DNA from: Candidatus Scatosoma sp.
Lineage (GTDB): Bacteria; Bacillota; Clostridia; Christensenellales; Borkfalkiaceae
Assembly (NCBI GenBank): GCA_045611585.1
Contig: JAZKXM010000088.1
Location: 1 to 56,941, forward strand
DNA: 56,941 nt
Direction: 5' to 3'
The notes beneath the pieces are model-generated. The model did no database searches. It saw nothing but the letters and a program-made list of their open reading frames with translations, and was not told where the DNA came from. This document shows positions 18,535 to 34,038 of this stretch, one piece after another. Made by a program: the position numbers and the translations under genes. How positions within the stretch are numbered: position 1 is the first letter of the stretch; each line of letters opens with the position of its first letter.

Positions 18535-18864
18535 TTAAGATAAGAACGGCAAGCAAGGGGTTGAAATGGTCATACTGCCTATCAAAGACCCCAAAATAAC
18601 TCCGTAAATAATCCCTAAAACAACGGATACGATTACGGAAACAAGCGCACCCTTTCCTGCGCTTTTTGCGCGAAGGGGATATTCTTCTTTCCACATTAAA
18701 AACAATATCAGTCCAACAATAGGAATAAAAAATCCTAACAATGCATATCCAATGCTAGATTCGTCTTTTCCCTTTACGGCATTTCCTTTCCCTGTCGAGC
18801 AACCGCAATTCGGGCAAATTACCGCATTGTCGTTGATTTCTTTTCCGCAAGTTTTGCAATACAT
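18535..18864 (-). CDS. zinc-ribbon domain membrane protein
   Basis: 109 aa; N-terminal CKTC..(11)..CPNC zinc ribbon followed by two hydrophobic helices; RBS GGAGG. Confidence 0.75.
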   Translation of the reverse strand: MYCKTCGKEINDNAVICPNCGCSTGKGNAVKGKDESSIGYALLGFFIPIVGLILFLMWKEEYPLRAKSAGKGALVSVIVSVVLGIIYGVILGSLIGSMTISTPCLPFLS

Positions 18865-18995: not shown

Positions 18996-19307
18996 ATGAT
19001 TAGATTACTTGAACTTCGTTCGGAGAAAGGAATATCGCAGCGGGAAATGGCAAAAATCATGACCGTCAGCCAAGGAACATATAACAACTGGGAAAATGAG
19101 CGGACACAACCTTCGATTGAGCAGTTGATTGCACTTGCGGAATTTTTTGCGGTCAGCGTAGATTATTTGATTGGCAAAACGGAAGATTATGAAGTAAGCG
19201 AAAAAACGGATTATTTTTCCGAAGAAGAAAAAGGGCTTGTACGCCGCTACCGTCGGCTAAACGATGAAGCGAAGCAATCCCTATTGCTGTTTTTAGAAAA
19301 CATATAG
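18996..19307 (+). CDS. XRE (Cro/C1-type) helix-turn-helix transcriptional regulator
   Basis: 103 aa; LRSEKGISQREMAKIMTVSQGTYNNWENERTQPSIEQLIALAEFF is a classic HTH_3 pattern; RBS AGAGGAG. Confidence 0.85.
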   Translation: MIRLLELRSEKGISQREMAKIMTVSQGTYNNWENERTQPSIEQLIALAEFFAVSVDYLIGKTEDYEVSEKTDYFSEEEKGLVRRYRRLNDEAKQSLLLFLENI

Positions 19308-19314
19308 ATAAAAT

Positions 19315-19348
19315 CAAAAAACCCTTGGGTCAGTTCCCAAGGGTTTTT
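19315..19348. terminator. bidirectional terminator shared by the XRE gene and trmO
   Basis: AAAAAA, then CCCTTGGG (19322-19329) / CCCAAGGG (19336-19343), then TTTTT. Overlaps the trmO stop codon. Confidence 0.7.
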
Positions 19349-20004
19349 ACGTCTATCACCGTCAATATGCCGTTTTCTACTGTGAATTGTATATCAAATT
19401 CCCCAAATTTCATTCCGTAAATCCTCGTCGGGTCGTCTTGGTAAGAGGGGCGGGGATCGTCGGCAAGACATTCCGTCAAGCCTTTTCGCTTTTCAGGCGG
19501 GATCATTTCTAATAACGTAGGAGGGAAACACACGGACAAGTTGTCCAAACGGTGTTCCTCGGCGTAGCTCCCCGTCGCGTCCGTTTTGCAATCGGCGTAC
19601 GGGATATACGGCTTGATATCCAAAATGGGCGTTCCGTCCAAAAGGTCTGCACCTGAAACCACCAAAACCACGCCGCCTTGCGGTGTGCGTTCCGTTCCTA
19701 ACAACTTCACGCAGGACAGTCCGATGGGGTTGGGACGAAAGGGGGAACGGCTGGCAAACACACCCACTCGCTTGTTGCCGCCCAGCCGCGGCGGGCGCAC
19801 GGTGGGGGAAAATTCCATTCTGTGCGCTTTGGAAAAATCGAAAATCAGCCAAAGGTGAGAAAATTCCTCAATTCCCCGAAATGCCTCCTCGCAATCGTAC
19901 GGGGGATAAAAATAAATTTTGGCGGGCAAGTTCGCCCGTCCGCTTTGGCGCGGAACGCCGAATTTTTCCTTAAAATCGTTGCGAATTACGCCGATCGGTT
20001 GCAT
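19330..20004 (-). CDS. trmO: tRNA (N6-threonylcarbamoyladenosine(37)-N6)-methyltransferase TrmO (TsaA/YaeB family)
   Basis: 224 aa; IGVIRNDF.....PRQ start and SRSPFRPNPIGLS motif of the YaeB/TsaA fold. Confidence 0.85.
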   Translation of the reverse strand: MQPIGVIRNDFKEKFGVPRQSGRANLPAKIYFYPPYDCEEAFRGIEEFSHLWLIFDFSKAHRMEFSPTVRPPRLGGNKRVGVFASRSPFRPNPIGLSCVKLLGTERTPQGGVVLVVSGADLLDGTPILDIKPYIPYADCKTDATGSYAEEHRLDNLSVCFPPTLLEMIPPEKRKGLTECLADDPRPSYQDDPTRIYGMKFGEFDIQFTVENGILTVIDVKTLGN

Positions 20005-20035
20005 AGCTTCACTCCTTTTTGTGCTTTCCGTTTCG

Positions 20036-20064
20036 ATTATACACGCTTAAAAAAAATTTGTCAA
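20036..20064 (-). promoter_or_regulatory. consensus sigma-A promoter for trmO
   Basis: On the minus strand: TTGACA (20064-20059), exactly 17 nt, TATAAT (20041-20036). Confidence 0.7.
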
Positions 20065-20179
20065 ACGGAAACGGGGGAAAACAGGCGCACGGGTGGTGGA
20101 TTTGGGGCGGTTTTTGCCCCAAAATTTCTTAAAAATTTTAACAAAAACCCGAAAAAGAAAAAAAGTGTTGTAAATTATA

Positions 20180-20208
20180 TTTACAAAGCGCGTTTTGTGT
20201 GGTATAAT
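20180..20208 (+). promoter_or_regulatory. sigma-A type promoter at the head of the 35-kb co-directional block
   Basis: TTTACA (20180-20185), 17 nt, TATAAT (20203-20208) preceded by TGTGG; about 55 nt upstream of the ATG at 20261. Confidence 0.6.
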
Positions 20209-20260
20209 AAAAGAGCGAAAAAAGGAAATTTTGTCGAAGGAAAGGGAAGGACGGAAAAAT

Positions 20261-21277
20261 ATGTTAAAAAAATACTATTCCGACAACTTAACGGGCCGTG
20301 TTTACGACGCCTATTTTTCCATTGACGGCGCGGTGCGGGCGTACCGTGACGACTGCACGCTGTACGGTGTAACCGCGGACGAGGCAACCCTTGCCCTCAA
20401 CGCCTTTTTCTTTGACAACCCCGACGTCTATTTTTGTTGCGCGCAGTTTGTAACGATGGAAGGTTCTTCCCAAGGGGTGCGGTTGCGCTTTTCCTATCAT
20501 CAATGCGATGAGGGGAAATTTGCGCGAGAGCTTAAAAAAATCACCGACGAGCTGGACAAAAAAATCACCTCGCAAACGACTGATTACGACGTGGCGAAGG
20601 CGGCGTACGACGTGCTGGCGGCGACGGTGAAGGGGGATTCGGAAGTTCTTTGCGCCTACGGGCGCCTAAACGTGCGCGATAGGGCGCAGGTGGAGGAATT
20701 TTCGCAAACGCACGGAACTTCTTTTTGCGCCTACGGCGCGATTGTCGAAAAGAAGGCGGTGTGCATGGGCGTTTCGCTTGCTTACAAGCTGCTGCTGGAC
20801 AAATACCGTGTAGAGTGCGCGGTGGTCACGGGGGATTATAATGGAATTCCGCACATGATGAACGTGGTTGAGGCGGACGGAAAGCGGGCGTACGTGGACG
20901 TGACGAAGGGGTTTATGGACGAACAGCTGCCCATGGTGCGTTACGACGTGTTTATGATGGGCGAAAAGAAAGTGGGAAAATATTTCGCGCCGCAGCAGGA
21001 TTTTGGGTGCGTGGATGAGGATTTGCACTACTTTGCCAAAAACGGGTTTTGGTTTAAGGACGGGTATGCGCTGCGGAGATACTTAAATTCCTTTACCTAC
21101 GAAAAGACGGGCGGCGAGGTTCGGTTTTACTATACGGGCAAGGGCTTTGACGACCGCGCTTTGGGAAAGCTTGCGGGGGATATCCTTCCCCGTCGGTGCG
21201 GGACGGAGTTCGATTACGTCGGGTGCATTGTAGAGCACGGCGTAGGAAACGCAATTTTGAAAAAACACAAGGAGTGA
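20261..21277 (+). CDS. transglutaminase-like cysteine protease superfamily protein (cytoplasmic)
   Basis: Cys-His-Asp layout of the transglutaminase-like core: KKAVCMGVSLAYKLLL ... IPHMMNVVE ... AYVDVT. No signal peptide. ATG 20261 has the RBS GAAAGGGAAGGA and lies downstream of the -10 box, so the ORF-track start 20195 is rejected. Confidence 0.7.
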   Translation: MLKKYYSDNLTGRVYDAYFSIDGAVRAYRDDCTLYGVTADEATLALNAFFFDNPDVYFCCAQFVTMEGSSQGVRLRFSYHQCDEGKFARELKKITDELDKKITSQTTDYDVAKAAYDVLAATVKGDSEVLCAYGRLNVRDRAQVEEFSQTHGTSFCAYGAIVEKKAVCMGVSLAYKLLLDKYRVECAVVTGDYNGIPHMMNVVEADGKRAYVDVTKGFMDEQLPMVRYDVFMMGEKKVGKYFAPQQDFGCVDEDLHYFAKNGFWFKDGYALRRYLNSFTYEKTGGEVRFYYTGKGFDDRALGKLAGDILPRRCGTEFDYVGCIVEHGVGNAILKKHKE

Positions 21278-21284
21278 TATTTTT

Positions 21285-23498
21285 ATGCAAGAGCAAGACA
21301 AAAGAAGGATGAAATGGCAGATCGACTTTGACAGCTTTTTCAACGTATTCAGCACCTTTATCATCGACGGGAATATCGACGATATTCAGCCGCTTATCGA
21401 CGAGGACGGCGGGGTGGAATACGTCCGTTTGACGGATTATTTTATCAGCAGTCTGTATGAAAACCGCGATACGGATAAAAAGTGCGTAGTCATTTACGAT
21501 CCCACCGAATCGGACGACAAGCGTTTCACCATCGCCTCGCCCTTTGAAGAACGGGTGAAAGAGAGCGAGGACGGGGAAAGCGAAAACCCCGACGAGGTGG
21601 AATACGAACGCGTTTACGACGATCCGCTTGCACAACATTTTTGGGATATTTTGCACGAAGAAGGGCTTGAAGAACAGCTTATCGGGCACAACGCGGGCGG
21701 GGCGTCCTTTGATATGGCTCGGGTGCATTACGCAGTTACCGAAAACGGGCGTATGACGCAAAACGAATTGCTTGCTCGGTTTAAAAACTTTTGGGATAGT
21801 TTAAACACGCAGGGCGGCGGCAGAACGACGGGGTACGTGTTCGTTATCAAAATGACCTCGCGGCTGTTGACGCACGAGGGTTCGTCCAACGGTTTGGGGG
21901 CGGACGAATTGCTTTTGTTCCGTCAGCTTTTGAATATCTCGCAAAATATCGTGAGAAACAGCGAGCATAAGTTGATTGTCCTTGCCAACAAAACGACGGA
22001 TTTGCCTATGTGGTTCACGGACGATACCGTCAATCCGTTTATCAAAAAATTGACGATTGAAAAGCCTTCCGAAAACAACAAAAAGGCGTTTTTCGATATG
22101 ATGATCGACGAGGTAAGCTTCGGCGAAGAATTTAACAGAAAATACCGCGAGGCAATCGCCTTAAAAGCGGGCGAAAGCTTAAATCCCGGGGAAACGGAAA
22201 CGCCCGCGGAAAAGAAAATTAAGCGCAAATTCCTTGCCTACACCAACGATTTTTCGATGAAGATGCTGGAATATTATCAATCCTACCTCCAACAGGGTAA
22301 CGAGGTGGATTCGCCCGACAAGCTGGGGTATTCGGTGGCGGCGTTTAAAGCGGGTACTTTGGAAAACCCTTGGGAGCGCGAAGACAAAATTAGAGATATC
22401 TTAAACATTACTTCGGTGGTGTCCAAAAAGATCAAGGGGCAAGACCAAGCCTTGGAAACGGTGCAAAATATCCTTACCCGCGCGGCGATCGGGCTGGGGC
22501 GGATAGATAACCCTAACGCGCCCCGCGTGGTGCTGTTCCTTGCCGGCCCTACTGGTACGGGTAAGACGGAGATTTGTAAACAGCTTGCCGAGGCGATTTT
22601 TGGCAGCGAAGAAAGAATGGTGCGTTTCGATATGTCCGAATACGGTCAAGACCACTCTGACCAAAAGCTGTTCGGCGCGCCTCCGGGATACGTCGGGTAC
22701 GAGGAGGGCGGTAAACTGACGAACGCGATGAAGAAAGAGCCTTTCTCGCTGGTGCTGTTCGACGAGATTGAAAAGGCGCACGGTTCGATTATGGATAAAT
22801 TCCTGCAAATTTTGTCGGACGGGCGTTTGACGGACGGCAAGGGGGAAACGGTCAGCTTTACGGACGCGATTATCGCGTTTACCTCTAACGCTGGCGTTAC
22901 CTCGCCTACGCCGAAAAACGAGTACGAGGCGATCGACATCGAAAAGAAGATGGGCGGCGAGAAAAAGCCCGAACGCGAAATGAATATGCAGGCGGTTATC
23001 GAAATGGAGCAAGAGGGCGTGCCCGCGGATGAGATTTACGAAAACGTCAGAAAATATTTCCGCTATAACGTCAAGCACTATTTCTGCTGTACCTTGAACC
23101 GTCCCGAACTGTACGGGCGTATTGAGGATTCGTTGGTGTATTATAACTATATCGGCAAGGCGGCGGTACAGTTGATCGTCGAGGCGAAGATGAATTCGCT
23201 GATCGAGGCGGTAAAGGACAAATACAAGATTGCGCAGGTGACCTGCGACGAAGCGGTAACGGACAAGGTCGTCGAATACTGCCAAACGGAACAAGTGCGC
23301 TCGATGGGTGCGCGTGGGATCGGCAAGGCGGTCAACGTGCTGTTTGAGGGCAGCTTGGCAAACTTCCTGTCCCCGTACGTAACCTTCCGTGACAATCACA
23401 GCCGCGCGGAGCTGGAAGGCAGAGCCCTGCGTTGTTCGGTTGCGGTGGGTCAAGAGGGGCTGTTAAAGCCCGCCGATCTTATATGGAGCGAGGCGTAA
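21285..23498 (+). CDS. AAA+ ATPase with ClpB/ClpA D2-type module and novel N-terminal half
   Basis: 737 aa. Residues ~400-737 carry Walker A GPTGTGKT (22545-22568), pore loop GAPPGYVGYEEGG, Walker B LVLFDE (22749-22766), FLQILSDGRLTDGKGETVSF, sensor-1 FTSNAG, RPELYGRIED and GARGIGKAV (D2-small). Residues 1-390 have no P-loop. Confidence 0.85.
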   Translation: MQEQDKRRMKWQIDFDSFFNVFSTFIIDGNIDDIQPLIDEDGGVEYVRLTDYFISSLYENRDTDKKCVVIYDPTESDDKRFTIASPFEERVKESEDGESENPDEVEYERVYDDPLAQHFWDILHEEGLEEQLIGHNAGGASFDMARVHYAVTENGRMTQNELLARFKNFWDSLNTQGGGRTTGYVFVIKMTSRLLTHEGSSNGLGADELLLFRQLLNISQNIVRNSEHKLIVLANKTTDLPMWFTDDTVNPFIKKLTIEKPSENNKKAFFDMMIDEVSFGEEFNRKYREAIALKAGESLNPGETETPAEKKIKRKFLAYTNDFSMKMLEYYQSYLQQGNEVDSPDKLGYSVAAFKAGTLENPWEREDKIRDILNITSVVSKKIKGQDQALETVQNILTRAAIGLGRIDNPNAPRVVLFLAGPTGTGKTEICKQLAEAIFGSEERMVRFDMSEYGQDHSDQKLFGAPPGYVGYEEGGKLTNAMKKEPFSLVLFDEIEKAHGSIMDKFLQILSDGRLTDGKGETVSFTDAIIAFTSNAGVTSPTPKNEYEAIDIEKKMGGEKKPEREMNMQAVIEMEQEGVPADEIYENVRKYFRYNVKHYFCCTLNRPELYGRIEDSLVYYNYIGKAAVQLIVEAKMNSLIEAVKDKYKIAQVTCDEAVTDKVVEYCQTEQVRSMGARGIGKAVNVLFEGSLANFLSPYVTFRDNHSRAELEGRALRCSVAVGQEGLLKPADLIWSEA

Positions 23499-23507
23499 AG
23501 GACGGTT

Positions 23508-24020
23508 ATGACCCAACGGAAAGAATTGCTAAAAATCGGCGCGAAATTAGAGCTCTGCGGCGAGCTTGACGCTGCCGCGGAGGTATATCGCAGATACGTT
23601 GAGGAGGGGGCGCGCCTTTCGGACGGAACGGACGCGCTGTGCCTTTTGTACGGAGAGGAGGCGTATAGCCAGCCTATTACCTCCTACCGCCGCGCGGCGG
23701 AATGTGCGTTCATCGGCGAGTGCGCCAAAAAACTGATAGAACTGATGCGAGGGAATTTCCCCGACGTCGGGCCCTTTGAAATGCCGACGGGGACGAAACG
23801 CCCCGACGCCGCCGTCGTTACTTTTTTCGAGTGGCTGACAAAACGGCGCAGTATCGGCGTGGACGATTATAAGATGTTAAAAAAGGCGAAAAACGCCTTT
23901 GCGAAATCGGGGAAGCTTTCGATAGAAGCGACTCCGTCCGTATCCCGTCGCACCTTGGAAGAGGTGGTGTGCGATTTGGTGTGCGGGGCGACGAAAGTGG
24001 TGGATAAAAGGTTGCGTTAA
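23508..24020 (+). CDS. hypothetical protein (170 aa, helical)
   Basis: ORF 9 nt after the AAA+ stop; its TAA abuts the next ATG (TAAATG at 24018-24023). No motif recognised. Confidence 0.65.
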   Translation: MTQRKELLKIGAKLELCGELDAAAEVYRRYVEEGARLSDGTDALCLLYGEEAYSQPITSYRRAAECAFIGECAKKLIELMRGNFPDVGPFEMPTGTKRPDAAVVTFFEWLTKRRSIGVDDYKMLKKAKNAFAKSGKLSIEATPSVSRRTLEEVVCDLVCGATKVVDKRLR

Positions 24021-25928
24021 ATGAAACTGATTAAAGTAAAATGTCCTAAAAACAAAAAGGTGGAGGTGGAGGACCTTGGCACGGGCGCGGCGCGCTGCCC
24101 CGCGCATTGTCCGTTAAAACAGCGCTCCCGTTGCTTTAACAACACCTTTCGATATACGGCGGCGTTAAATCCGTCCGTCACAGTGGACGTTCCTTTTGCG
24201 GAAGGGGGCGTCGTTTCCGCTTGTCCGCCTGCGGCGGAAAAAATTAATCCGCCTACTTTCTCTGCGCCCTCTTTTTCTGCACCTACTTTCTCCGCGCCTA
24301 CGCGCGAGGAGCATACGTCCTCCTTTGCCGCGCCTTCTTTTACGCGCGCGCCTGCGTACGAGAGCGCGCCCGCACGCGAGGAAGAACCTATATCCACGAT
24401 CGGTTACGCTTTCCCCGACGAGAAGGAAAGCGGGGTAATCGGGTATGAATTTCCTTCCTTTGAGGAGGAGAAGGAGTCCTTTTCTCAAAGGGGGCAAACG
24501 GAAAAGCGGAGTACGCTGGACAAATACAACGACGCGTTGACGTCGGTTAGCAGTCTGTTTGCGGGCGTTCGCACGCGGAGCGCGGACGAACCCTGCTTTG
24601 AGGACGGCGCGTACGTATTTTACGAAGGGGGGAATGCGGACGGCGCGGGCAATTCGGCGGCGGCGATACGGTATATCTTCCAGCATTGGTACGTATCAAA
24701 GGTGTTTGAGGAAAACGGAAAAAATTATCGGGAAGAATTTTTGTATCTTCTCAAACTGCGCGGGTTTAAGGACAAGGAAGCCGAGCTTCGCGCGATCGTC
24801 GAGGACGCGGCTTTGGACGTCAACAGAAAATTTTTCCGCCTTTTCTATTCGGTGATCTATCAAAACCAAATCAACGGGTTTTACTGGCACGAGGGGGATT
24901 CGCCCTTCCGTAAAATTCCGCCGAAATTTTTAAACTTGGAGGACTTTTTCAAAAAGCTGGCAGCCGCCTTGGACCCGTCCGAATTTTTGCAGAGTTTTGA
25001 AAACTGCTTTGACGAGCTGACGGTGTTTTTACAGGCTGGAAAGCAAACGGAAAACGGAAAGGAATGGTTTAAAAAGAATTTGCCGCTTATGATGGCGGCA
25101 CGGGAAAATTGCGTTTCTTACGTTGATGAAACGGACGGGAAGATTACGTTGAAGAACTTGGGCGGGATCAAAGGCTTTATCCAAAATATGGCAAAGCCCG
25201 CCACGGTAAAAACAATGTCCGAACGATACCGTTTCTTGCGGGAATTTAAAATTACCGTCAACGGACGGGTACTCCCGCGGGAACAGCCGTTGCCCCTTTC
25301 TGCGCCGAGGACGGCGGAGGACGACGGCGTGTATGAAAGCGTAGGACTCTTTTCCTTGGCGGCGTCACAGTGCGCTACGGCGTATAATTATTACGTCACT
25401 TTGTTAAAGGAATACGTGGACGTGTTTCACCCCGACAGCATACGCTTTGCAAACGGATATTTTTCTTGCAGGAATTTTTATGAGGAGCTGTTGGTTGCGA
25501 TCACGGACGCTTGCGCGCATCTTTCGGAGGAGCGGGCGGGCAGTTATCCCGAGGTGCAACGGCTGTACGTGGTAAAAAGCTTTTTCGACCGCGGCGTGTT
25601 TGATTATTTTGAAACCCGTTGCGAAACGAAGAAATTGCAGGGGCTGAAAAAGGCGTTTGTGGAAAGCGAAAAGGTGGATTTGGAAACGTATTTCCGCTTT
25701 GAGGGCTTGAAGCATTTTGTGACGGTCGGCGGCGAGAGAAAGACGGTCGGCGGGTATTTTAAAGAAACCGTCAAACGCGAGGCGTCCTTTATCGAAGGCA
25801 ATTTCGGCGCGGATAAGATCGCGAGGGCGTACTTTGCGGCGAAAATTCCGTCGGGGGATTGGAAGGTCGCCGAAGGGGAAATTGAAAAATTACTTGCCGA
25901 ACAGCAAAAGCTGGTCAACGAATTTTAA
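24021..25928 (+). CDS. hypothetical protein (635 aa) with Cys-rich N-terminus and P(T/S)FSAP repeats
   Basis: N-terminal C8/C26/C30/C38 (KCPKN..(17)..CPAHC..(7)..C); triple PTFSAP-SFSAP-TFSAP at 24252-24302; large C-terminal region without a recognised motif. Confidence 0.75.
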   Translation: MKLIKVKCPKNKKVEVEDLGTGAARCPAHCPLKQRSRCFNNTFRYTAALNPSVTVDVPFAEGGVVSACPPAAEKINPPTFSAPSFSAPTFSAPTREEHTSSFAAPSFTRAPAYESAPAREEEPISTIGYAFPDEKESGVIGYEFPSFEEEKESFSQRGQTEKRSTLDKYNDALTSVSSLFAGVRTRSADEPCFEDGAYVFYEGGNADGAGNSAAAIRYIFQHWYVSKVFEENGKNYREEFLYLLKLRGFKDKEAELRAIVEDAALDVNRKFFRLFYSVIYQNQINGFYWHEGDSPFRKIPPKFLNLEDFFKKLAAALDPSEFLQSFENCFDELTVFLQAGKQTENGKEWFKKNLPLMMAARENCVSYVDETDGKITLKNLGGIKGFIQNMAKPATVKTMSERYRFLREFKITVNGRVLPREQPLPLSAPRTAEDDGVYESVGLFSLAASQCATAYNYYVTLLKEYVDVFHPDSIRFANGYFSCRNFYEELLVAITDACAHLSEERAGSYPEVQRLYVVKSFFDRGVFDYFETRCETKKLQGLKKAFVESEKVDLETYFRFEGLKHFVTVGGERKTVGGYFKETVKREASFIEGNFGADKIARAYFAAKIPSGDWKVAEGEIEKLLAEQQKLVNEF

Positions 25929-25952
25929 GCAAGGCATACGGAGAAAGGAATT

Positions 25953-27914
25953 ATGAGTTCGATAGACAAGGGTGTAGAACAGGTCGTCAACCGAATGGGC
26001 AGAAACGTGCGGGTGGTAAAACGCGGCAACGTTATCTACGGGTATATGAACGGGGAACAGGTGTTTTCCCTCGCCGACCGCTACGGGTACATAAACGATC
26101 GGGAAGAAGCGATCATTCGGGACGGGATTCGCCGTTATGACGAGGAAGAACGCCGTCGGCAGGAACGTCGCGAAGCGGAACGCCGCGCTCGCGAGGAGGC
26201 GATTCGTCGCGCGAGAGAGGAGGAGGAACGCCGTCGGCGGGAAATGTTAGAGGCGGAACGCCGCCAAGCGATTGCAAACCTCAAACGGGCGGCGGAGGAA
26301 AAGCGCAGGGAAATAAACGGCGCGATCAGCCGTCGGCAAGAAGCGGTGCGGGCGATTGAAAACGCGGCGGAAAAACGCCGTAAGGGAATTGAAAGTATGT
26401 CCCGCAGGGCAAGCGGATTGGATTTTTCCGCTCTGTTACAGCGTAGCGCGCAAACGGCAAGCCGTCAGCGGACGGCGGCGGAAGGGGAAACGCAAAAATT
26501 CCGCGCGACAACCTCGCAGCTGGACGCCTTGACTGCGCAGATCAAGGATAGCATGACGACGGAGCAAGCCAACGAGCTTTTAAAGCGTTGCCGCAGGGTG
26601 ACTTTACCTGCTCTTTCGGGAGAGGACGCGGGGTACGAAAACGGAAAGTTCGCCGAAGAATTGTCGCAGATCGAAAACGGCTTAAACGAATTGTTGCCTG
26701 CGATCGGGCGGTTGCAGGAGGCGGGCGGCGCAAACGACGAAACGGGGATTATTGCGCGCGAAGCGATCAAGAGTATTTCCCTGCAAACGATCGGAGGCGC
26801 GGAGGATTTGGCGGCGGTTTCGGCTACGGCGGAAAAGCGGCTTTCCAAGATCGTAGAGGTGATGGAAAACAACCGCACGGCGGAGGCGGTCGGGAAGCTT
26901 TCCTATCTGCACGGCGCGGTGTCCGCTTGTAAAAAGACGCAGACGATGGTGGCAAAATCCACCTATACGGCAAACGATTTCCGTGGCGAAATCGTACAAA
27001 AGGCGACGGCGGCGCTGGCTGGGTTTAGAAAGCTTGCCGAAGGAGAATTTAGCACTTGCTCTAAGACAAGATACGCGCAAGCGACGGAGCGGCTGGAAGG
27101 TATTTTGTTGCAGGACGGCGTGGGCGAGGAAGTTTTGCGCGAGGTGGAAAAGCTGTCCGCAGAGCTGTCCGAATACGAAGAGGACGTCCGCCTGCATGCA
27201 GGGGAGTATGAAGAATATAAAGCTTTGAAGGAACGGCTGATCGGGTACGGTTTGGAGGAAAGGGAAATCCCCGCCTTTGACGTAAAAGGCTACGCAAGGC
27301 AAAAGCAAGAATTTTCCGCTCGGCTTGCCTATGAAAAGAGGGAGTATGAAAAATCTCAGCTGATTATGACGGATATGCATGCGCGTTCGGCGATGGAGCA
27401 GATGGGGTACGAACAGTTTGCCTCCGTCGGTGACGCGGAAGGGTACGTTAGAGAAGCGTTGTTCACCAAGGCTGGTTATGACGGAGTTTTGTGGCAGGTG
27501 ATTTCGTACGCCAACGGGTCGGTGTCCCGTCGGGTGATCGGGGTCAACAAAGGCGAAACGCAAACGGATAAAGAGTACGTTAAGCAAGTGGCGGCGGAAA
27601 TGGACGAAAAAGGGGATCAGCAACGGTTTTTGCAGTTGTTTAAAGAAGGGACGGGTTCGGAGCTTCGCGTGACCGAGGCGGTAGAGCACGATTCGGAAAA
27701 CGCCGACGAGGCAATTGAGAACAACGGGTTCCATTATTTGCAGGGGGAGGCTTTGCAATTATACGAAAAGCGAGTGCAAAAGATCGTCCAAAACAAGCCC
27801 GTCAAGGCGAAGCAAACGCAGGTGCGCGTGATGGCGGGGGACGCGGTGGCAAGCTCGGCGCGGTCCCTTTCGCGGGCGGCGCAAAAGAGCAGGGCAATGT
27901 GTCATGAGAATTGA
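25953..27914 (+). CDS. hypothetical coiled-coil / ER-K charged-helix protein (653 aa)
   Basis: RBS GGAGAAAGG. Residues 63-120 are almost purely E/R/K/A (EEERRRQERREAERRAREEAIRRAREEEERRRRE..); long helical middle; C-terminal tail ..QVRVMAGDAV... Confidence 0.8.
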   Translation: MSSIDKGVEQVVNRMGRNVRVVKRGNVIYGYMNGEQVFSLADRYGYINDREEAIIRDGIRRYDEEERRRQERREAERRAREEAIRRAREEEERRRREMLEAERRQAIANLKRAAEEKRREINGAISRRQEAVRAIENAAEKRRKGIESMSRRASGLDFSALLQRSAQTASRQRTAAEGETQKFRATTSQLDALTAQIKDSMTTEQANELLKRCRRVTLPALSGEDAGYENGKFAEELSQIENGLNELLPAIGRLQEAGGANDETGIIAREAIKSISLQTIGGAEDLAAVSATAEKRLSKIVEVMENNRTAEAVGKLSYLHGAVSACKKTQTMVAKSTYTANDFRGEIVQKATAALAGFRKLAEGEFSTCSKTRYAQATERLEGILLQDGVGEEVLREVEKLSAELSEYEEDVRLHAGEYEEYKALKERLIGYGLEEREIPAFDVKGYARQKQEFSARLAYEKREYEKSQLIMTDMHARSAMEQMGYEQFASVGDAEGYVREALFTKAGYDGVLWQVISYANGSVSRRVIGVNKGETQTDKEYVKQVAAEMDEKGDQQRFLQLFKEGTGSELRVTEAVEHDSENADEAIENNGFHYLQGEALQLYEKRVQKIVQNKPVKAKQTQVRVMAGDAVASSARSLSRAAQKSRAMCHEN

Positions 27915-28491
27915 GCGCGCCGTCAACTACGTCGAAGCGTTGGGCCCTGGGCGGCGGCTGTGCGTATGGGTAAACGGCTGTTCGCGGCGGTGTAAAGGCT
28001 GCGTATCCGCGCGGTTGCAGGTGGTGGACGAAGGGACGGAAGCGGAGATAGAAGAGTATTTTTTTGGATATAACCTACGCGCGATCGACGGCGTGACGGT
28101 ATCGGGGGGAGAGCCCTTCGAGCAGATTGCCGAGCTGGAACGGCTGGTGAAGTATTTTCGGCGGCGCGGGGTGAAGGATATATTAGTATATACGGGCTAT
28201 ACTTTGGAAGAATTGCAGGCGAAAAAGGACGAGAGAGTGGAAAGGATTTTTTCACAAATTTCCGTGCTGATCGACGGGCCGTACGTTGCGGAGCTGGACA
28301 GTGGCAAGGGCAATTTGACGGGGAGCGAAAACCAAAGAGTGCATTATCTGGACGAAAGCGTAAGGGCGGCGTACGAGGCGTACCAAACGGAAAAGCGTTC
28401 GGTGCAAGAGATGACGTTGGGAAACGTCTTGCTGGGGGTAGGGATCCCCGATACGGAATACATCAAACGGTTTAACGAGGAGAAAAATTAA
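27904..28491 (+). CDS. NrdG-type radical SAM activating enzyme (anaerobic RNR activase-like), orphan
   Basis: 195 aa; CX3CX2C at 27979-28002 (NGCSRRCKGC); VSGGEPF; YTGYTLEEL; LIDGPYVAELDSGKGNLTGSENQR. ATG overlaps the upstream stop by 11 nt. Confidence 0.8.
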   Translation: MRIERAVNYVEALGPGRRLCVWVNGCSRRCKGCVSARLQVVDEGTEAEIEEYFFGYNLRAIDGVTVSGGEPFEQIAELERLVKYFRRRGVKDILVYTGYTLEELQAKKDERVERIFSQISVLIDGPYVAELDSGKGNLTGSENQRVHYLDESVRAAYEAYQTEKRSVQEMTLGNVLLGVGIPDTEYIKRFNEEKN

Positions 28492-28503
28492 AAGAGGTGG
28501 ATC

Positions 28504-30519
28504 ATGGCAGAATTTTATTTCGACAGTAAATTTAGCACGTTAAAGGACGATCTGGGCGTAACGGCAAGCGGTATGCCTCAAGTACACGTAGAGCGTGATT
28601 ATCAGCGGAGTGACGTGGGGTACGTGCTGTACGTTACCTTCCCGCAATGGGACGCGCCGCACTGGGGCGGACGGGAAAGAGAGCTGCCCTTTGACAGCGC
28701 GCGGATAATTTATAATGTTCGCGGAATGGGGATAAAGAAGATCATTGACGATTCTCCTACGGCGTTACAGAAAAAGGAGATAGAGGTGGACAAAAGCTTT
28801 TCCTATCAAAACGAAGTGGGAGAAAAGGATTATAAAAAGCAAGGGTTCCGTTACATATTTGTCCGCGATGAAAACGACCTTTCGGGCGTGGGCAAAATTA
28901 TCTTAAAAAGCGCCCGCCGCGAAGGGGAAACGGTAATCTATTTCGCTGTCAATTATGGATTAAAAAAAGTGATCAAATATTCTGTGAAAGGGGGCAAGAT
29001 TCTCTTTGAGGGAAAAGGAGTACAAGAAAAAATCAAGGTGCGGATCAACTATTCGCCCAATCGGTATCCTTGCCTTACCGAAGACAATAGAAACAATAAC
29101 AAGGTGGAGATCGAAATAGATTTTGCAAAAACACCTATTGCCGAGTGGTTGTTCCCCGAAGAATTGCTGGATAAGCGGGAGGGGCATCGATATCAGCAGG
29201 TGTGCGTAACTTTTGCAAGGGACGTTCAAGAAAAATTGGAAAAATATTACCTTTTGCAATGTGTCAAAAACGATACCTTTAATATTCGTCGTCGCGAATT
29301 TGAGCATCCAAATCCTATTTTCTTCTGTCCGTATTGTCATCAACGAATTGAGGTAAGCGCGGCAATGACGAGGGCGTATAAAAAGGGAGGTTGTTCTTGC
29401 CGAGGAACAAGATTTAACGAAAACGGAAAACTGTTACCCGTGATGCAAGCAACTGAAGGAAAAAAACTGGCTAAAAACGTAATGTATTGCGAAAAAGATT
29501 TCCAGATTAACCAAGGATTCAGAGCGATAGGTGGAAGAAGCCGTATCCTGCCTGAAAATTTTTTAGGACACAACCATTATAAAATTTTGGTCATTGGGTC
29601 GAAACGTGCTGGTAAAACTACCTTTATCTCTCGTTTATTTAATATCATAGGGAAAGAAACTAATTTAATAATGGACGCAGAAATGCTAAAGAACGCTACG
29701 CAAAAGAAATTTAAGATAGATAGTCGCCCCATTCAAAATTTACCTTCTAGGAATAAAGATGGAGCACCGATGCTTAGTAAAGACCTGTGGTATCAAGAAT
29801 CGACAATGGCAAAGGATCATTACGGCGGATATGCTATTCGTTTGGCTGATGGGACATATCCCGAACCGACGAACACCGTTGATTTGTCCGGATTGCCTTT
29901 TGTATTGAAGGTGAGAGAGAAAAACTATATTTATTTTTACGATATTGCAGGGGAAGATTCCGAAAAGAAACGAGATAGGGTCAAGCATCTTTTAGAAGAG
30001 GGCGTAGCGGGCGTATTTTTTCTTGTGGACGGTAAGACGAATGAAATGGGTAATACCTCGGCTTGGGAAACCTTGGGAGCGGTTGCTGAGAATAACCCTG
30101 ATATCCCTGTGGCGGTGATATTAACCAAGTTTGATACCATAGAAAAGGAATTTGATACAAATTGCCATTGTCTTCGCGCCGACGCATACGATATGATGAA
30201 TAAGCGGTACGACGGCAGTCAGCTGGAACGGAATATCGAATTTGCCAGTGAAGAAATACAGTCCTATCTTGCGTCTCGTAAACTTTCTCTGCAAACAAAG
30301 GTTGCCGAAGGACAAAAGGAGAAGGAAGATGAAAAGGCGAAGTTTAAAAACATTTGCTATTTTGGCGTATCCTCTTTTTCGGACAGCGACGCGGTATTCC
30401 ATCGCGACCAGAAAAACAACGAGGGGCAAGAGGAGAATTACCTAAAACACGCTTGCTCGCCAAAGCGTATGGAGCTGCCCGTGATTTGGATGTTGAAACA
30501 ATTTGGGTGTATTATTTAA
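28504..30519 (+). CDS. Zn-ribbon-containing TRAFAC-class GTPase with large N-terminal domain
   Basis: 671 aa. CPYC (29326-29337) .. CSC (29392-29400) ribbon; G1 GSKRAGKT (29596-29619); G3 DIAGE (29941-29955); G4 TKFD (30124-30135). N-terminal ~270 aa not recognised. Confidence 0.8.
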   Translation: MAEFYFDSKFSTLKDDLGVTASGMPQVHVERDYQRSDVGYVLYVTFPQWDAPHWGGRERELPFDSARIIYNVRGMGIKKIIDDSPTALQKKEIEVDKSFSYQNEVGEKDYKKQGFRYIFVRDENDLSGVGKIILKSARREGETVIYFAVNYGLKKVIKYSVKGGKILFEGKGVQEKIKVRINYSPNRYPCLTEDNRNNNKVEIEIDFAKTPIAEWLFPEELLDKREGHRYQQVCVTFARDVQEKLEKYYLLQCVKNDTFNIRRREFEHPNPIFFCPYCHQRIEVSAAMTRAYKKGGCSCRGTRFNENGKLLPVMQATEGKKLAKNVMYCEKDFQINQGFRAIGGRSRILPENFLGHNHYKILVIGSKRAGKTTFISRLFNIIGKETNLIMDAEMLKNATQKKFKIDSRPIQNLPSRNKDGAPMLSKDLWYQESTMAKDHYGGYAIRLADGTYPEPTNTVDLSGLPFVLKVREKNYIYFYDIAGEDSEKKRDRVKHLLEEGVAGVFFLVDGKTNEMGNTSAWETLGAVAENNPDIPVAVILTKFDTIEKEFDTNCHCLRADAYDMMNKRYDGSQLERNIEFASEEIQSYLASRKLSLQTKVAEGQKEKEDEKAKFKNICYFGVSSFSDSDAVFHRDQKNNEGQEENYLKHACSPKRMELPVIWMLKQFGCII

Positions 30520-30534
30520 AAGGAGAAAAACGCG

Positions 30535-32976
30535 ATGATACAATACAAACATTATCACGACGTGGAAGAGGGGTATAAAAGCATAGCCTCGAAAAACGCA
30601 GAGGATGCGGACGTAAACGTTTTTAAGGCGTTGGGCGCGTTTGAAAGGAGCGGGGAAAGTTGCTTTACCTATTTTTATCAAGACGGAAGAGGATATTTTT
30701 ACCAAAAGACCTGCAAGGGGGACGTTTTTGCGCACGGGCTTTGCGAAGAAGTTAGCGCGCTTGGCAAAGGTTACGCCACCGAATATATCGGGCAGCTGGA
30801 AACAAAATACAAAACGGAAACGGATAAGGAGGGGTATTTGCCCGAAGGGAAATTGCCCTATCGCCGCGCAGAGTGCGACCTATCCTTGGGGCGCGGCTTG
30901 CAGCCCGTCTTTGCGCGCATCGTCGATACTCTGCTTTACACGGACAAGCCCGTTGTTTTGACGGGAAAAAACACGGAAGAGCTGGTCAGATACGTCAAGG
31001 TGGCGTTGCTTTTATTCCCTGCCCAATATGCAAATACGATTGGGTTTTCCGTCTGTCCTCAATATCTTCCCGACGTATTTGGGAATACGGAAAGGGCAAT
31101 TGGGCGGAACGTGCGTCTAATTGCGACGGACGAAGACGTGCGGGCGTACAGCGGCTGGACGGTACTCAACGTCAATGGGACTTGGCGGGAGGAAAACGCG
31201 GAAGAGCTGCGTCCTTACGCGAAGGCGATCGACGGCTTGCAACGATATATCGTCAGCGGCAACGGCAATAGGGCGAGCGCCCTTCTCAACACAGTGTGCC
31301 CTTCTTTTGGCGGTGACGGCAGTGTGAATACGGAAATGCTGGAAACGGCGATCTGCGTATATAATTTCTCTGCGGAGCATACGCCCGAACGGGCGGCGGA
31401 GCTGATCGGCGCAAAGAAGGCGGACAAAAACGGCGTTGTGTTGTCCTCTATGGTGACGGAAGCGGTGTTTGAGATTTTAAATCAAGCCGAACTGAACGAA
31501 GAGGAGGAAGGCTTGATCGAATATGCCCGTACGGACGGGCAGGTGAACGAGCTGGTCAAACAGCAATGCGGCAGATACGCGCTTACAAAGCTGGCGCAAG
31601 GGCAAAAGCTGACGAATCTGCAAGAGGAGGACGTCATCTCCTTCTTGGAAGACTTGCCCGTGGAAGAATTGAAAGGGGAGGGCGCGGCGTTAAAGGACGT
31701 ATTCGGTGCTGCCCGCGCGATGAACACCCTTTCGGTATTCTGCAAAGCGTATGCGCAGACGGGAAAGAGGGAGTTGTTGAAGCTGATTTCGCAATATACG
31801 GACGTGCGCAAGACGTGGACCATAGCGGGATTTGATGAGGAGATGTTTGCGCTGGCAAACGGTTATAAAAAGGAACAGACGGCTTTACTGGCGGCGATGT
31901 TATCTACTTGTTTTATCTCGGTAGTGCTTGGTTCGGCAAGCATGAGAGAAAAGACAACTCCCCGTTTGCGGCTGTTTGCAAAAAGAGGGGAAGGCAAAAA
32001 CGGGATCGAATGGATCAAGGAGTTACTTTCCTTAAAAGTAGAGGTAGAAAAGATCGCAGGGGAAGATATGTCTTTTGCGGACGATTTCGAGTTTTTGCAT
32101 AGAGAAGATCTGTCCGCATTGATTGCGAGGCTTACCTTTGAAGAATGTTTGACCCTTGCCAACGGCGGGGCTTGTATTGAGAATTATATCGCGTTGCAGA
32201 ACGGAATTGTCGGGCGGCTGACCTCTTACAAGGAAGTGAAAGAGAACGTCGCTTTGGGCAAAAATTTGGAAAAATATCTCACGTTTAAGCAACGCAATAA
32301 AGAGGCGTCCGTCGACGGCAACGAGATAGACGAATATCTGGACGAATTAAGTAGGTTGGAAGAAGTCAACAAATGGGTGGAAGAATATCGGGGAAGTTTT
32401 TTCCATGGTAAATACAACACGGCTTCTTTGGAGCAACGGAAAAAGATTGCCGCCGAAGTGGCGTTGAAAACGGGAAAGACGTATAACGTCAACGGGAAAA
32501 CAGACAAGGAAGAAGGCAAGGACCAGCTGAAAGAGCTGCTGTTGGATAACAAAATTTCCTTTGCTGAAAAAGAGGAGATAACGGACATTATGTCCAACGC
32601 GTTGCATAATGAGCTTGTGGGGAAGAATAAAAATTCGAACATTCGCAACGTGCTGTTTTTGATGTATTCGTGCCTGTTGGGGGTGCTGTTGATGGCGATC
32701 ACGTGCGTAATTTTTGCGGTACTACCCATTGCGTCCTCCGTGCTGTTGGAGGTGGATATGTTGAAAAGAACGATTGGCTTTTTCACCGTCTACCATTTGA
32801 TTGCGATAGCGTACGTGGGCGTATTAGCCGTTGCAACGTATAGAAGGTGTTGGAAGAAGAGCGACGAGGACAGATTGGGCTCGTTGAAAAAATCGGTGCG
32901 GGTAACGCTGTTGTACGGCGTATTGCCGGCGTTTCTGTACGCGGTGGCGTATGCAGTGACATATTTTGTGCTTTGA
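30535..32976 (+). CDS. hypothetical 813-aa protein, C-terminally membrane-anchored
   Basis: RBS AAAGGAGAAAAA. About 700 aa soluble region without a recognised motif, then 3 hydrophobic helices in the last ~110 aa (nt ~32641-32973). Confidence 0.75.
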   Translation: MIQYKHYHDVEEGYKSIASKNAEDADVNVFKALGAFERSGESCFTYFYQDGRGYFYQKTCKGDVFAHGLCEEVSALGKGYATEYIGQLETKYKTETDKEGYLPEGKLPYRRAECDLSLGRGLQPVFARIVDTLLYTDKPVVLTGKNTEELVRYVKVALLLFPAQYANTIGFSVCPQYLPDVFGNTERAIGRNVRLIATDEDVRAYSGWTVLNVNGTWREENAEELRPYAKAIDGLQRYIVSGNGNRASALLNTVCPSFGGDGSVNTEMLETAICVYNFSAEHTPERAAELIGAKKADKNGVVLSSMVTEAVFEILNQAELNEEEEGLIEYARTDGQVNELVKQQCGRYALTKLAQGQKLTNLQEEDVISFLEDLPVEELKGEGAALKDVFGAARAMNTLSVFCKAYAQTGKRELLKLISQYTDVRKTWTIAGFDEEMFALANGYKKEQTALLAAMLSTCFISVVLGSASMREKTTPRLRLFAKRGEGKNGIEWIKELLSLKVEVEKIAGEDMSFADDFEFLHREDLSALIARLTFEECLTLANGGACIENYIALQNGIVGRLTSYKEVKENVALGKNLEKYLTFKQRNKEASVDGNEIDEYLDELSRLEEVNKWVEEYRGSFFHGKYNTASLEQRKKIAAEVALKTGKTYNVNGKTDKEEGKDQLKELLLDNKISFAEKEEITDIMSNALHNELVGKNKNSNIRNVLFLMYSCLLGVLLMAITCVIFAVLPIASSVLLEVDMLKRTIGFFTVYHLIAIAYVGVLAVATYRRCWKKSDEDRLGSLKKSVRVTLLYGVLPAFLYAVAYAVTYFVL

Positions 32977-32981
32977 GGTGA

Positions 32982-33974
32982 ATGATGGCTAAGAAGAAGA
33001 TATTTTCGATAAAAACGATATTGCTTTTGATCTGTCTTGTCGGCGGGGCGTTTTTGGGCTTTTTCGACGCGACGGTCTTGGGCGTGAACTTCTTTGAGGA
33101 AAAGGTGTATGAAGCGGAGGTGGATTCGCAAGACGATCTTTTGGAGATGGGCGGGTCCTTCCACAACAACGTCATCAAGCTGACGGGGGATTTTTTGGTT
33201 GACCAAAAGGGAGGCTTTGCCTCTAAGGAATTCCCCTTTGTCGGGACGTTTGACGGGCAGGGGCATACGATTGAATTTAAAGATTTTAGAAAGACGGACG
33301 ACGAGGGCGTGGAGAGCGTGGAAAAATACAACGTTTGCCGTTCCTTCTTTGGGTATATCGGCAAAGGCGGGGTCGTGAAGAATTTGACGATCAAGGTTTC
33401 GACCGCGGATATGAAAAACAAGCTGGGCGGCATTTTTGCCTTGGAAAACGAAGGAAAAATCGTCAACTGCAAGGTTGTCGTGGGGAAATATACCGTGATG
33501 ACGAAAGGTATATACGGCGGCTTGGTCGGACGGAATAAGGGGGACGTGGAAAACGTCGTCTGCGAGGTGTACTTCGATAAAAATATTATGGCGGAAGAAG
33601 TCGAAAGTAAGCAAAAATTAGCGCTTGGCGGGCTGTGCGCGTACAACACGGGGAACGTGCGCTCGTGCATTGTGAAGACGACGTTTAACGCAAATCAATT
33701 TGAAGAAACGCAAGAAAAGCTGGTGTTTGAAGGGAAGCAGTACAATAACCGAATCGGCGGGGTGTACGGCCCGAAAAGCAGCGTGGGGAAGGTGGAAAAA
33801 ACCGTTTGCCTGATTGATACGGGGGTAGCCGTATCCGATAAAGACGGGGCGGGTATCACCTTTGAGCGCGACGCAAGCAAGGTGTACAATTATTTTGTGT
33901 TGGAAGAGCTTGGCTTTAACGTGGACGAATGGAAGCTGGAAGATAATACGTTTGTTTTGGATATGGAGAGATAA
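32982..33974 (+). CDS. membrane-anchored GLUG-motif protein
   Basis: 330 aa; N-terminal TM (ILLLICLVGGAFLGFF); repeated GLUG-type motifs YGGLVGRNKGDVENV, LGGLCAYNTGNVRSC, IGGVYGP. Confidence 0.7.
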   Translation: MMAKKKIFSIKTILLLICLVGGAFLGFFDATVLGVNFFEEKVYEAEVDSQDDLLEMGGSFHNNVIKLTGDFLVDQKGGFASKEFPFVGTFDGQGHTIEFKDFRKTDDEGVESVEKYNVCRSFFGYIGKGGVVKNLTIKVSTADMKNKLGGIFALENEGKIVNCKVVVGKYTVMTKGIYGGLVGRNKGDVENVVCEVYFDKNIMAEEVESKQKLALGGLCAYNTGNVRSCIVKTTFNANQFEETQEKLVFEGKQYNNRIGGVYGPKSSVGKVEKTVCLIDTGVAVSDKDGAGITFERDASKVYNYFVLEELGFNVDEWKLEDNTFVLDMER

Positions 33975-34038
33975 GGAAAAAAGCGCCTAACGGCGAACGA
34001 ACGAAACGAACCTAACGAAAGATAGGAGAAAAAAGGTT

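Follow-up and report, generated by a model that had tools for sequence, protein, structure and literature searches.

A conserved gene unit of uncultured gut Clostridia that resembles predicted GTPase-centric conflict systems and includes a giant surface lipoprotein

Introduction

Predicted GTPase-centric conflict systems have been described by Kaur, Burroughs, Iyer and Aravind (eLife 2020, PMC7159879) and are defined by GAP1 proteins together with DO-GTPases ('double-GTPases'). Here we discuss how a block of nine open reading frames, ORF1 to ORF9, compares with these systems. The block lies at positions 20261-33974 on the + strand of a 56,941-nucleotide (nt) stretch of DNA from Candidatus Scatosoma sp. 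(GenBank assembly GCA_045611585.1, contig JAZKXM010000088.1, positions 1 to 56,941), and this whole stretch is referred to as the window. DO-GTPases are TRAFAC-clade GTPases in which the Walker-B glutamate is conserved and which often have one or two Zn ribbons at the N-terminus. GAP1 contains GAP1-N, GAP1-M and GAP1-C domains and is typically encoded downstream of the GTPase. In the GAP1-N2 type, which is found in Firmicutes, Actinobacteria and other bacteria, GAP1 often has C-terminal transmembrane helices. The third component is a helical protein, GASH, in the N1 type and a rapidly evolving extracellular protein with FNIII repeats in the N2 type. The genes linked to GAP1-N2 systems fall into three themes: tubulin/vWA, HSP70/GrpE/DnaJ and kinase/PP2C. 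A constant core with variable effectors, and mobile neighbourhoods, characterise the GTPase-centric systems as a whole (PMC7159879).

The block shares with GAP1-N2 systems a TRAFAC GTPase that has the Walker-B glutamate and an N-terminal Zn ribbon, a GAP1-M gene directly downstream whose product has C-terminal transmembrane helices, and an extracellular repeat partner. Both have a membrane-proximal layout and are found in Firmicutes, and both are linked to a chaperone-type NTPase, HSP70 there and a ClpB-D2-type AAA+ protein here. TIR domains, which are a feature of GAP1-N1 systems, are found in variants of the unit. However, the GTPase stays below the thresholds of the DO-GTPase Pfam models, and no GAP1-N or GAP1-C domain was detected. 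In place of an FNIII protein, the repeat partner is a giant lipoprotein with Flg_new repeats, often with a Hint module. Neither GASH nor FNIII was detected in the proteins of the unit, and the Flg_new lipoprotein, which varies in length and C-terminus, occupies the analogous position (the analogy is functional). The linked genes also differ from the three GAP1-N2 themes. They encode a transglutaminase (TGase)-like peptidase, a ClpB-like AAA+ protein, an NrdG-like radical S-adenosylmethionine (SAM) enzyme, ORF3, ORF4, ORF5 and ORF9. Unlike those of GTPase-centric systems in general, these accessory genes are largely constant and not hypervariable.

On this comparison, we put at about even the chance that the unit is a lineage-specific variant of the GTPase-centric (DO-GTPase/GAP1) systems that depend on nucleoside triphosphates (NTPs), resembling the membrane-proximal GAP1-N2 type, with a conflict role, anti-invader or abortive, as its most likely function. 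A conflict-type role is favored because of the recurrence of GAP1-M, the DO-GTPase hallmarks of ORF7, the position of the GAP1 gene, the variable outputs that include TIR, the exchange of a gene cassette, the rarity of the unit, the DENN-like fold of ORF8 and the co-inheritance of the genes. An NTP-dependent conflict system had been suggested from the DNA letters (the sequence-only reading), and the resemblance of ORF7 and ORF8 to a DO-GTPase/GAP1 pair and the TIR domains of variant loci lend weight to that suggestion, although the threshold control and the defense function that it included are still conjectural. It had also been claimed that no named system has this combination of genes. PADLOC indeed assembles none, but the core pair resembles the computationally defined DO-GTPase/GAP1 class. 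A literature search found no paper on this gene cluster and no follow-up on the GTPase-centric systems.

The GTPase and its GAP1-like partner

28504 to 30519, + strand: ORF7, 671 amino acids (aa), with an N-terminal beta-rich domain (~250 aa), a Zn ribbon (CPYCH...C...C) and a TRAFAC small GTPase domain; DO-GTPase-like.
30535 to 32976, + strand: ORF8, 813 aa, with a cytoplasmic ~690-aa module (beta-sheet N-domain, alpha/beta GAP1-M domain, helical region) followed by 3-4 C-terminal transmembrane helices.

ORF7 has the motifs GSKRAGKT, DIAGED, which contains the Walker-B glutamate, and TKFD. The Walker-B residues D480-x-x-G483-E484 and the cysteines of the Zn ribbon are invariant in the family alignment. 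Weak matches, all below threshold, were found among 29 family members to Roc (24 members), MMR_HSR1 (18), DO-GTPase2 (17, best E 3e-4) and DO-GTPase1 (2), and the weakly matching families are Roc, Arf, G-alpha and Rag. The ORF7 family is tiny, with 30 clusters among 5.8 billion proteins.

The ORF8 gene begins 15 nt downstream of the GTPase gene. The sequence-only reading had listed four proteins without a recognizable motif. For ORF3, ORF4 and ORF5 this still holds, as none of them has a family match, but the 813-aa ORF8 carries the Pfam domain GAP1-M (GTPase-associated protein 1, middle domain). GAP1-M matches all 7 close homologues of ORF8 and 24 of the 50 distant ones, always at the same position (residues ~121-176 in the close homologues), and is the sole recurrent Pfam family across them. 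Two homologues score above the gathering threshold of 24 bits, P0034 with 25.5 and the one at locus L015 with 26.5 (profile positions 9-100 of 101); ORF8 of the window itself scores 15.9 bits. A profile search with the ORF8 family recovered 86 proteins or clusters among 1.84 billion representatives, which comprise full-length proteins of ~750-900 aa and fragments. Since the DO-GTPase2 matches are weak and GAP1-N and GAP1-C were not found, the ORF7-ORF8 pair is best filed as a divergent relative that resembles DO-GTPase/GAP1 and not as a proven member. The N-termini of both proteins, MAEFYF in ORF7 (28504-28521) and MIQYKHYHD in ORF8 (30535-30561), are conserved across close homologues.

In an AlphaFold2 (AF2) model of ORF8, built from 7 sequences (pLDDT 80.9, pTM 0.57), a three-stranded sheet with helices forms the N-terminal part. 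The GAP1-M position corresponds to an alpha/beta domain, after which come a long helical region and, at the C-terminus, transmembrane helices. The model's top Foldseek matches in the PDB are the Rab35-bound DENN modules of DENND1B and DENND1A (probabilities 0.91 and 0.84, E 0.06-0.12; entries 3tw8_C, probability 0.91, E 0.062, TMt 0.31, and 6ekk_B, probability 0.84), and chains of the C9orf72/SMCR8 complex, 7mge_C and 6lt0_C, rank lower. A profile search of PDB sequences gave no sequence-level match between the ORF8 family and DENN. The modeled domain order of beta-sheet, alpha/beta and helical domain is that of DENN modules such as DENND1A/B and C9orf72-SMCR8, which are regulators of Rab, Arf or Rag, and a small-GTPase gene adjoins ORF8. 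Unlike those modules, ORF8 is an integral membrane protein with no sequence similarity to them, and the match is marginal (E 0.06-0.3, TM-scores 0.17 and 0.31). A 2012 analysis of DENN found that the DENN and d-DENN domains occur only together, within the DENN module. DENN is not mentioned by Kaur et al. (PMC7159879). The resemblance is a lead only. It can be extended to a proposal that ORF8 is a bacterial membrane-anchored DENN-type module, with longin-like, DENN-like and helical domains, which regulates the adjacent Arf/Rag/Roc-like GTPase and which forms, with the giant lipoprotein, a transmembrane surveillance device whose outputs are the unfoldase/thiol-peptidase pair and a protein-directed radical SAM enzyme. 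This proposal is speculative and unlikely. If the DENN-like fold were real, the pair would be a prokaryotic counterpart of the DENN-small-GTPase pair and would bear on the origin of the eukaryotic regulators of small GTPases, and a DENN-type reading would supply GAP1 with a fold and an activity throughout the GTPase-centric systems.

Layout, conservation and distribution of the unit

The nine open reading frames are tightly packed behind one strong promoter, with intergenic distances from ORF1 to ORF9 of 7, 9, 0, 24, -11, 12, 15 and 5 nt, exactly as given in the sequence-only reading. When the nine proteins were used as tblastn queries, the genes were found to be colinear in most of ~30 related loci, at 21-77% identity (21-35% in the distant loci). 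All of these loci come from gut metagenomes or metagenome-assembled genomes (MAGs) of uncultured, Christensenellales-like Clostridia. Scanning one genome for each species yielded 21 loci in 185,579 species genomes, all of them in gut MAGs labeled Clostridia, Eubacteriales, Christensenellaceae, 'Coproplasma' or 'Ornithoclostridium'. Only three further copies were found in JGI metagenomes, and collections of viral contigs and plasmids contained none. The flanking genes are shared only with the closest relative and differ at the distant loci, and no mobile-element genes were seen at the loci.

The grouping is far beyond chance, and the genes form a real, strongly conserved unit. Nothing was found that supports chance juxtaposition, which is excluded because the order is conserved in most of the loci down to 21-35% identity. 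The core recurs together with a homologue of the downstream gene g1, described below. The sequence-only reading had placed the end of one co-inherited, operon-like unit at 33974; the unit itself stands, as it is colinear in most related loci, but this end is too short.

Surface proteins

32982 to 33974, + strand: ORF9, 330 aa, with an N-terminal membrane anchor and an extracellular beta-helix-like domain (PFxGTFDGNGHTI, GLUG-like motifs), from an alignment of 21 loci.
34039 to 45885, + strand: g1, 3948 aa, a giant lipoprotein (lipobox LTAC) with Flg_new (Listeria-Bacteroides) repeats, a C-terminal Hint module and a ~80-aa tail.
45202 to 45882, + strand: predicted Hint-type autoprocessing module of g1 (GDGE|CFTGDT..., TEHGF) with a conserved helical tail.
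45970 to 55449, + strand: g2, 3159 aa, a surface protein with BspA-type LRR_5 and Flg_new repeats, an N-terminal signal or transmembrane segment and a C-terminal transmembrane anchor.

ORF9 is present in most loci, and its homologue at locus L034 has a weak match to the adhesive domain Pectate_lyase_5. A g1 homologue of ~660-4400 aa lies directly after ORF9 at every locus for which downstream sequence is available, and for this reason the unit has at least ten genes, of which g1 is the conserved tenth. The giant surface proteins had been regarded as neighbors and as the basis of an alternative explanation. As g1 is in fact a member of the unit, the conflict and surface-protein readings are not mutually exclusive. 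A homologue of g2 is absent after g1 in most other loci. This gene is possibly co-transcribed and may be lineage-specific cargo or a neighbor, not a conserved member of the unit.

The Flg_new repeats of g1 match with E 3.7e-94, and the Hint module with E 2.4e-5, which is below threshold. The g1 homologues share a conserved N-terminal module of ~450 aa. The ending of Hint plus tail was found in 11 loci, with the junction Cys and the block-B His kept, and the C-terminus elsewhere is a Gly-rich tract, a transmembrane anchor or a leucine-rich repeat. The possibility that g1 is a polymorphic toxin, with Hint ahead of a C-terminal toxin, was considered and rejected: the ~80-aa tail is conserved and not polymorphic, and Hint is absent from half of the loci.

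The membership of g1 bears on a second explanation, which is inside-out control of a giant adhesin. According to this explanation, the GTPase/GAP1-like switch, the unfoldase, the peptidase and the radical SAM enzyme govern how g1 is displayed, anchored, released or quality-controlled, by way of ORF8 and ORF9. The unit would then be surface housekeeping and a Gram-positive functional analogue of the control of LapA by LapD/LapG. In the Gram-negative LapD/LapG/LapA system a transglutaminase-like cysteine proteinase, LapG, which is periplasmic, controls a giant adhesin by cleaving it directly. Here too a gene for a TGase-like thiol peptidase is linked to a giant repeat adhesin and to a transmembrane signaling partner. 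The conserved N-terminal module of g1 is membrane-proximal, the terminator scan listed no terminator-like site in the 64 nt that separate ORF9 from g1, the set of genes and their order stay constant over deep divergence, the neighbors are housekeeping genes, and g1 has its own predicted autoprocessing module at 11 loci; all of this would fit adhesin control. However, the likeness to LapD/LapG/LapA is by description only, as ORF1 is cytoplasmic, without a signal peptide visible in its sequence, and the unit lacks both a c-di-GMP receptor and type I secretion. As a lipoprotein, g1 has no cytoplasmic segment on which an AAA+ motor or a cytoplasmic peptidase could act, neither its Hint module nor its C-terminus is conserved across loci, and the distribution of the unit is rare and patchy for a housekeeping function. 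Adhesin control is regarded as a serious possibility that lies on the unlikely side.

A dedicated secretion system for the giant proteins has only the adjacency to these exported proteins in its favor. The export signals of g1 and g2 are ordinary ones of the lipoprotein and Sec types, which, as the sequence-only reading had pointed out, weakens a secretion role, and library scans of the nine ORFs detected no channel-forming or secretion-ATPase family. Secretion and chance juxtaposition, taken together, are scarcely credible.

Peptidase, unfoldase, radical SAM enzyme and proteins without a family

20261 to 21277, + strand: ORF1, 338 aa, predicted cytoplasmic thiol peptidase or transamidase, transglutaminase-like (papain-fold), with a helical domain at the N-terminus.
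21285 to 23498, + strand: ORF2, 737 aa, with a family-specific N-terminal half (1-~370) and a ClpB/ClpA D2-type AAA+ threading motor, pore loop GAPPGYVGYEEGG.
23508 to 24020, + strand: ORF3, 170 aa, a small protein kept in the reduced variants L015 and L034, where it adjoins the ORF4-like gene.
24021 to 25928, + strand: ORF4, 635 aa, in which a ~100-aa disordered linker joins a Cys-rich mini-domain at the N-terminus (1-~60) to a ~470-aa alpha/beta domain.
25953 to 27914, + strand: ORF5, 653 aa, with a small N-terminal domain, a long coiled coil and a C-terminal globular domain; its last 11 nt are shared with the start of ORF6.
27904 to 28491, + strand: ORF6, 195 aa, a small NrdG/glycyl-radical-activase-like radical SAM enzyme (CX3CX2C).

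Family matches and invariant motifs confirm the earlier calls of a TGase-like protein, a ClpB-D2 AAA+ module, an NrdG-type radical SAM enzyme and a Zn-ribbon TRAFAC GTPase. ORF1 has a partial NCBIfam match to a MAG6410 TGase-related region (E 9e-14), and its family profile matches PDB entry 9crn_A, 'Transglutaminase-like domain-containing protein', with E 7e-25. The catalytic triad is largely retained among 18 homologues (Cys 16/18, His 17/18, Asp 18/18). The Cys is lost at loci L005 and L017, and the His is also lost at L005. The solved structure 9crn_A is apparently unpublished, and a literature search for 9CRN returned nothing.

ORF2 is the most conserved protein of the unit, followed by ORF6. 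It matches AAA_2 with E 3.7e-43 and the D2 regions of ClpB, ClpV and ClpA with E 1e-55 to 1e-64. The sequence GAPPGYVGYEEGG is that of the ClpB pore loop, and the mean column identity of the D2 region across loci is 58%. D2 is the sole AAA+ module that could be detected, so that ORF2 differs from ClpB and ClpA, in which a D1 and a D2 module form a double ring. The N-terminal half has no P-loop and no PDB sequence match in a profile search. The motifs VIIYDPTE and KLIILAN prompted the idea that this half is a degenerate D1, which an alignment to its own D2 does not support (hhalign probability 0.1). In PADLOC-DB v2, which was used as the catalogue of known anti-phage defense systems, ORF2 matches the AAA_2/ClpB-D2-type domains of Dodola DolB and of the candidate system PDC-M37B (E 4e-27 and 5e-18). 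Only the generic ATPase domain matches, the N-terminal half being unrelated, and no partner gene of these systems, such as DolA, was found among the nine ORFs scanned. The sequence-only reading had expected no PADLOC hit if the system is novel, and beyond this ATPase domain and a faint match of ORF6 to pVip (E 3e-4) there is none.

ORF6 matches Fer4_12 with E 9.7e-32 and scores 97 bits over the full TIGR02491 NrdG profile, for which the cut-off is 126. In line with the earlier claim of no glycyl-radical enzyme nearby, none was found among the window ORFs scanned against Pfam. The RRVIGV sequence of ORF5, which is RRxxGV-like, was considered as a glycyl-radical site for ORF6 and dropped, as it is not conserved and its Gly is Pro in two homologues. 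An invariant Gly near the C-terminus of ORF7 was also set aside as a target because it does not fit an RVxG[FY]-type motif. In view of the NrdG score below cut-off, the lack of a glycyl-radical enzyme match in the window and the unconserved ORF5 motif, ORF6 is therefore described as activase-like in fold.

ORF3 has no family match in the library scans. The AF2 model of ORF4 has a pLDDT of 76, with disorder at residues 63-164, and neither Foldseek searches of PDB and BFVD nor a PDB profile search returned a match for it. Profile searches of PDB sequences with the families of ORF4, ORF5, ORF8, ORF9 and the N-terminal half of ORF2 gave nothing, or coiled-coil noise only, the latter for ORF5. ORF3, ORF4, ORF5 and the N-terminal half of ORF2 thus stand without a family or solved-structure match. 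The N-terminus of ORF5, MSSIDK (25953-25970), is invariant in 18/18 homologues, and the high conservation of the extreme N-termini of ORF5, ORF7 and ORF8 suggests that they may be recognition or processing sites.

Variant loci and an exchanged cassette

~28590 to 33000, + strand: recombination tract covering ORF7 and ORF8, with 63-87% nt identity to the closest relative, L025.

Three loci have a reduced set of genes. L015 is on a 10-kb contig that ends 250 bp upstream and encodes an ORF3-like protein, a fusion of TIR_2 with an ORF4-like protein, the GTPase, the GAP1-M protein and an 828-aa Flg_new membrane protein; in its ORF4 homologue TIR_2 (E 2.5e-12) takes the place of the N-terminal domain. 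The order at L034 is a Zn ribbon-TIR_2-Sel1 protein (TIR_2 26.1 bits, just below the cut-off of 28), ORF3-like, ORF4-like, GTPase, two ORF8-like paralogues, ORF9-like and a 659-aa g1-like protein, and TGase, AAA+, ORF5 and radical SAM genes are absent from this locus. The tandem GAP1-like paralogues of L034 (6626-9250 and 9278-11761, 874 and 827 aa) both begin with MIQY. L021 is reduced to the genes for the GTPase, an ORF8-like and a Flg_new protein. Common to all three are the GTPase, the GAP1-like protein and a surface repeat protein; L015 and L034 additionally keep ORF3 and ORF4, and L034 keeps ORF9 as well. The set of TGase, AAA+, ORF5 and radical SAM genes is absent from all three, with TIR instead in two and nothing in one. 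By its presence and absence, the ORF1/ORF2/ORF5/ORF6 set behaves as a replaceable, putative output module. This follows the pattern of a constant core with variable effectors that marks the GTPase-centric systems, although one output set dominates in this family. The TIR domains of these variants are hard to fit to the adhesin-control explanation.

The closest relative of the window, a 273-kb ENA contig (L025), was used for identity comparison. In a sliding window the two have ~96% nt identity from trmO up to and including ORF6, and once more over ORF9 and into g1. At the protein level the identities are 99.7, 98.5, 97.6, 97.0, 98.2 and 95.9% for ORF1 to ORF6, 72.2% for ORF7, 72.4% for ORF8, 98.5% for ORF9 and 92.6% for g1. 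ORF7 of L025 shares more identity with ORF7 of L033 (78.9%), a more distant locus, than with the window's (74.7%), and ORF5 follows the expected tree. General hypervariability of ORF7 and ORF8 was rejected because other close locus pairs show no such contrast. On these identities the contrast is a local recombination event in which a presumably co-adapted ORF7-ORF8 pair was exchanged as a cassette. The synteny of L025 with the window ends just left of trmO (~19290), where L025 has a Flg_new protein and the window has an Xre-type helix-turn-helix gene (18996-19307) and a small Zn-ribbon gene (18535-18864, - strand).

The cassette exchange brings in a third explanation, cell-cell recognition or an envelope-associated, cytoskeleton-like assembly. 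Here g1 would contact kin or host surfaces, and the GTPase/GAP1-like pair would organize a scaffold of ORF4, the coiled-coil protein ORF5 and the AAA+ remodeler, similar to the tubulin and HSP70 themes of GAP1-N2 systems. Kaur et al. take the GAP1-N2 neighborhoods as a sign of regulated, cytoskeleton-like assembly near the membrane (PMC7159879), ORF5 is a long coiled-coil protein, and a swap of ORF7-ORF8 alleles in near-identical strains also fits self/non-self discrimination. However, in other close locus pairs ORF7 and ORF8 are not unusually diverged, no polymer-forming fold (tubulin, actin, HSP70) was detected, no structural relative of ORF4 was found, and the TIR variants point to conflict. 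This explanation is considered distinctly unlikely.

Proposed mechanism and significance

How might a conflict system of this kind work? It is envisaged that a surface assembly of g1, ORF9 and the transmembrane helices of ORF8 reports an event at the envelope, which may be contact with a phage or a foreign cell or damage to the giant protein. ORF8, possibly a DENN-type nucleotide-exchange factor or another GTPase regulator, would switch ORF7 between GDP and GTP states, and GTP-active ORF7 would license the output modules. In the common form of the unit these may be the unfoldase ORF2 feeding the thiol peptidase ORF1, together with the radical SAM enzyme ORF6, with ORF5, acting on a partner protein or a small molecule. 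In the variants the output would be the TIR domain, presumably an NADase.

Several observations weigh against this interpretation. The conflict role of the parent class is itself a computational prediction, and PADLOC recognizes no system here. ORF7 reaches the threshold of neither DO-GTPase Pfam model, and Roc and MMR_HSR1 match it about equally well. GAP1-N1, GAP1-N2 and GAP1-C were not detected in the ORF8 family, and the 7-sequence ORF8 profile recovered its own ~800-aa family and no canonical GAP1 proteins. The likeness of ORF8 to DENN is weak (E 0.06, TM-score 0.31) and was obtained with a model built on a 7-sequence alignment. The surroundings are housekeeping genes, with no obvious defense island or mobile element, and no copy of the unit turned up in collections of viruses or plasmids. 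Most loci carry the same accessory genes, unlike the variation between close relatives in the systems of Kaur et al. (PMC7159879).

If the interpretation as a GTPase-centric conflict system is right, the unit would add a fourth and very different theme to the GAP1-type systems, which so far are computational predictions. It would be a compact, conserved example in which the sensor arm (the giant surface protein), the switch (the GTPase and its GAP1-like partner) and the outputs (unfoldase/peptidase, radical SAM enzyme or TIR) are genetically separable. It would also connect an intracellular signaling machine with the giant Flg_new surface proteins that are abundant in uncultured gut Clostridia.

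Promoter, terminators and flanking genes

20180 to 20208, + strand: predicted SigA/sigma-70-type promoter with an extended -10 (TTTACA, 17 nt, TGgTATAAT), called from sequence only.

The claim of a single sigma-A-type promoter is upheld, as this site matches the consensus at 11/12 positions plus the TG and is the top + strand match within 19300-34300. The start of ORF1 is most plausibly the ATG at 20261, which has the ribosome-binding site GGAAAGGGAAGGA in front. A 12/12 promoter on the - strand (20064-20036) faces trmO. In the divergent intergenic region between trmO and the operon, just 5' of the operon promoter, there is a terminator-like hairpin at 20101-20123 on the + strand, TTTGGGGCGG-TTT-TTGCCCCAAA plus a T-rich tail.

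The earlier finding of no internal terminator also held up. A scan of the block found no convincing terminator among ORF1-ORF9; it contains 32 terminator-like sites with short stems, which is near the shuffled expectation of 23.8 +/- 4.5. The first strong terminator downstream is a bidirectional hairpin at 56607-56633. Because no convincing terminator lies between it and the promoter (20208-56633), the nine genes, g1, g2 and a dagK-like gene could be a single transcript of ~36 kb. The flanks are ordinary Firmicutes housekeeping genes, namely priA, def, fmt, rsmB, rlmN, rpe, fakA, recG, hisIE, degV, trmO and the dagK-like gene. GC skew is strongly positive on the + strand across 1-56941 and nearly all genes are on this strand, which is consistent with a leading-strand segment of a chromosome.

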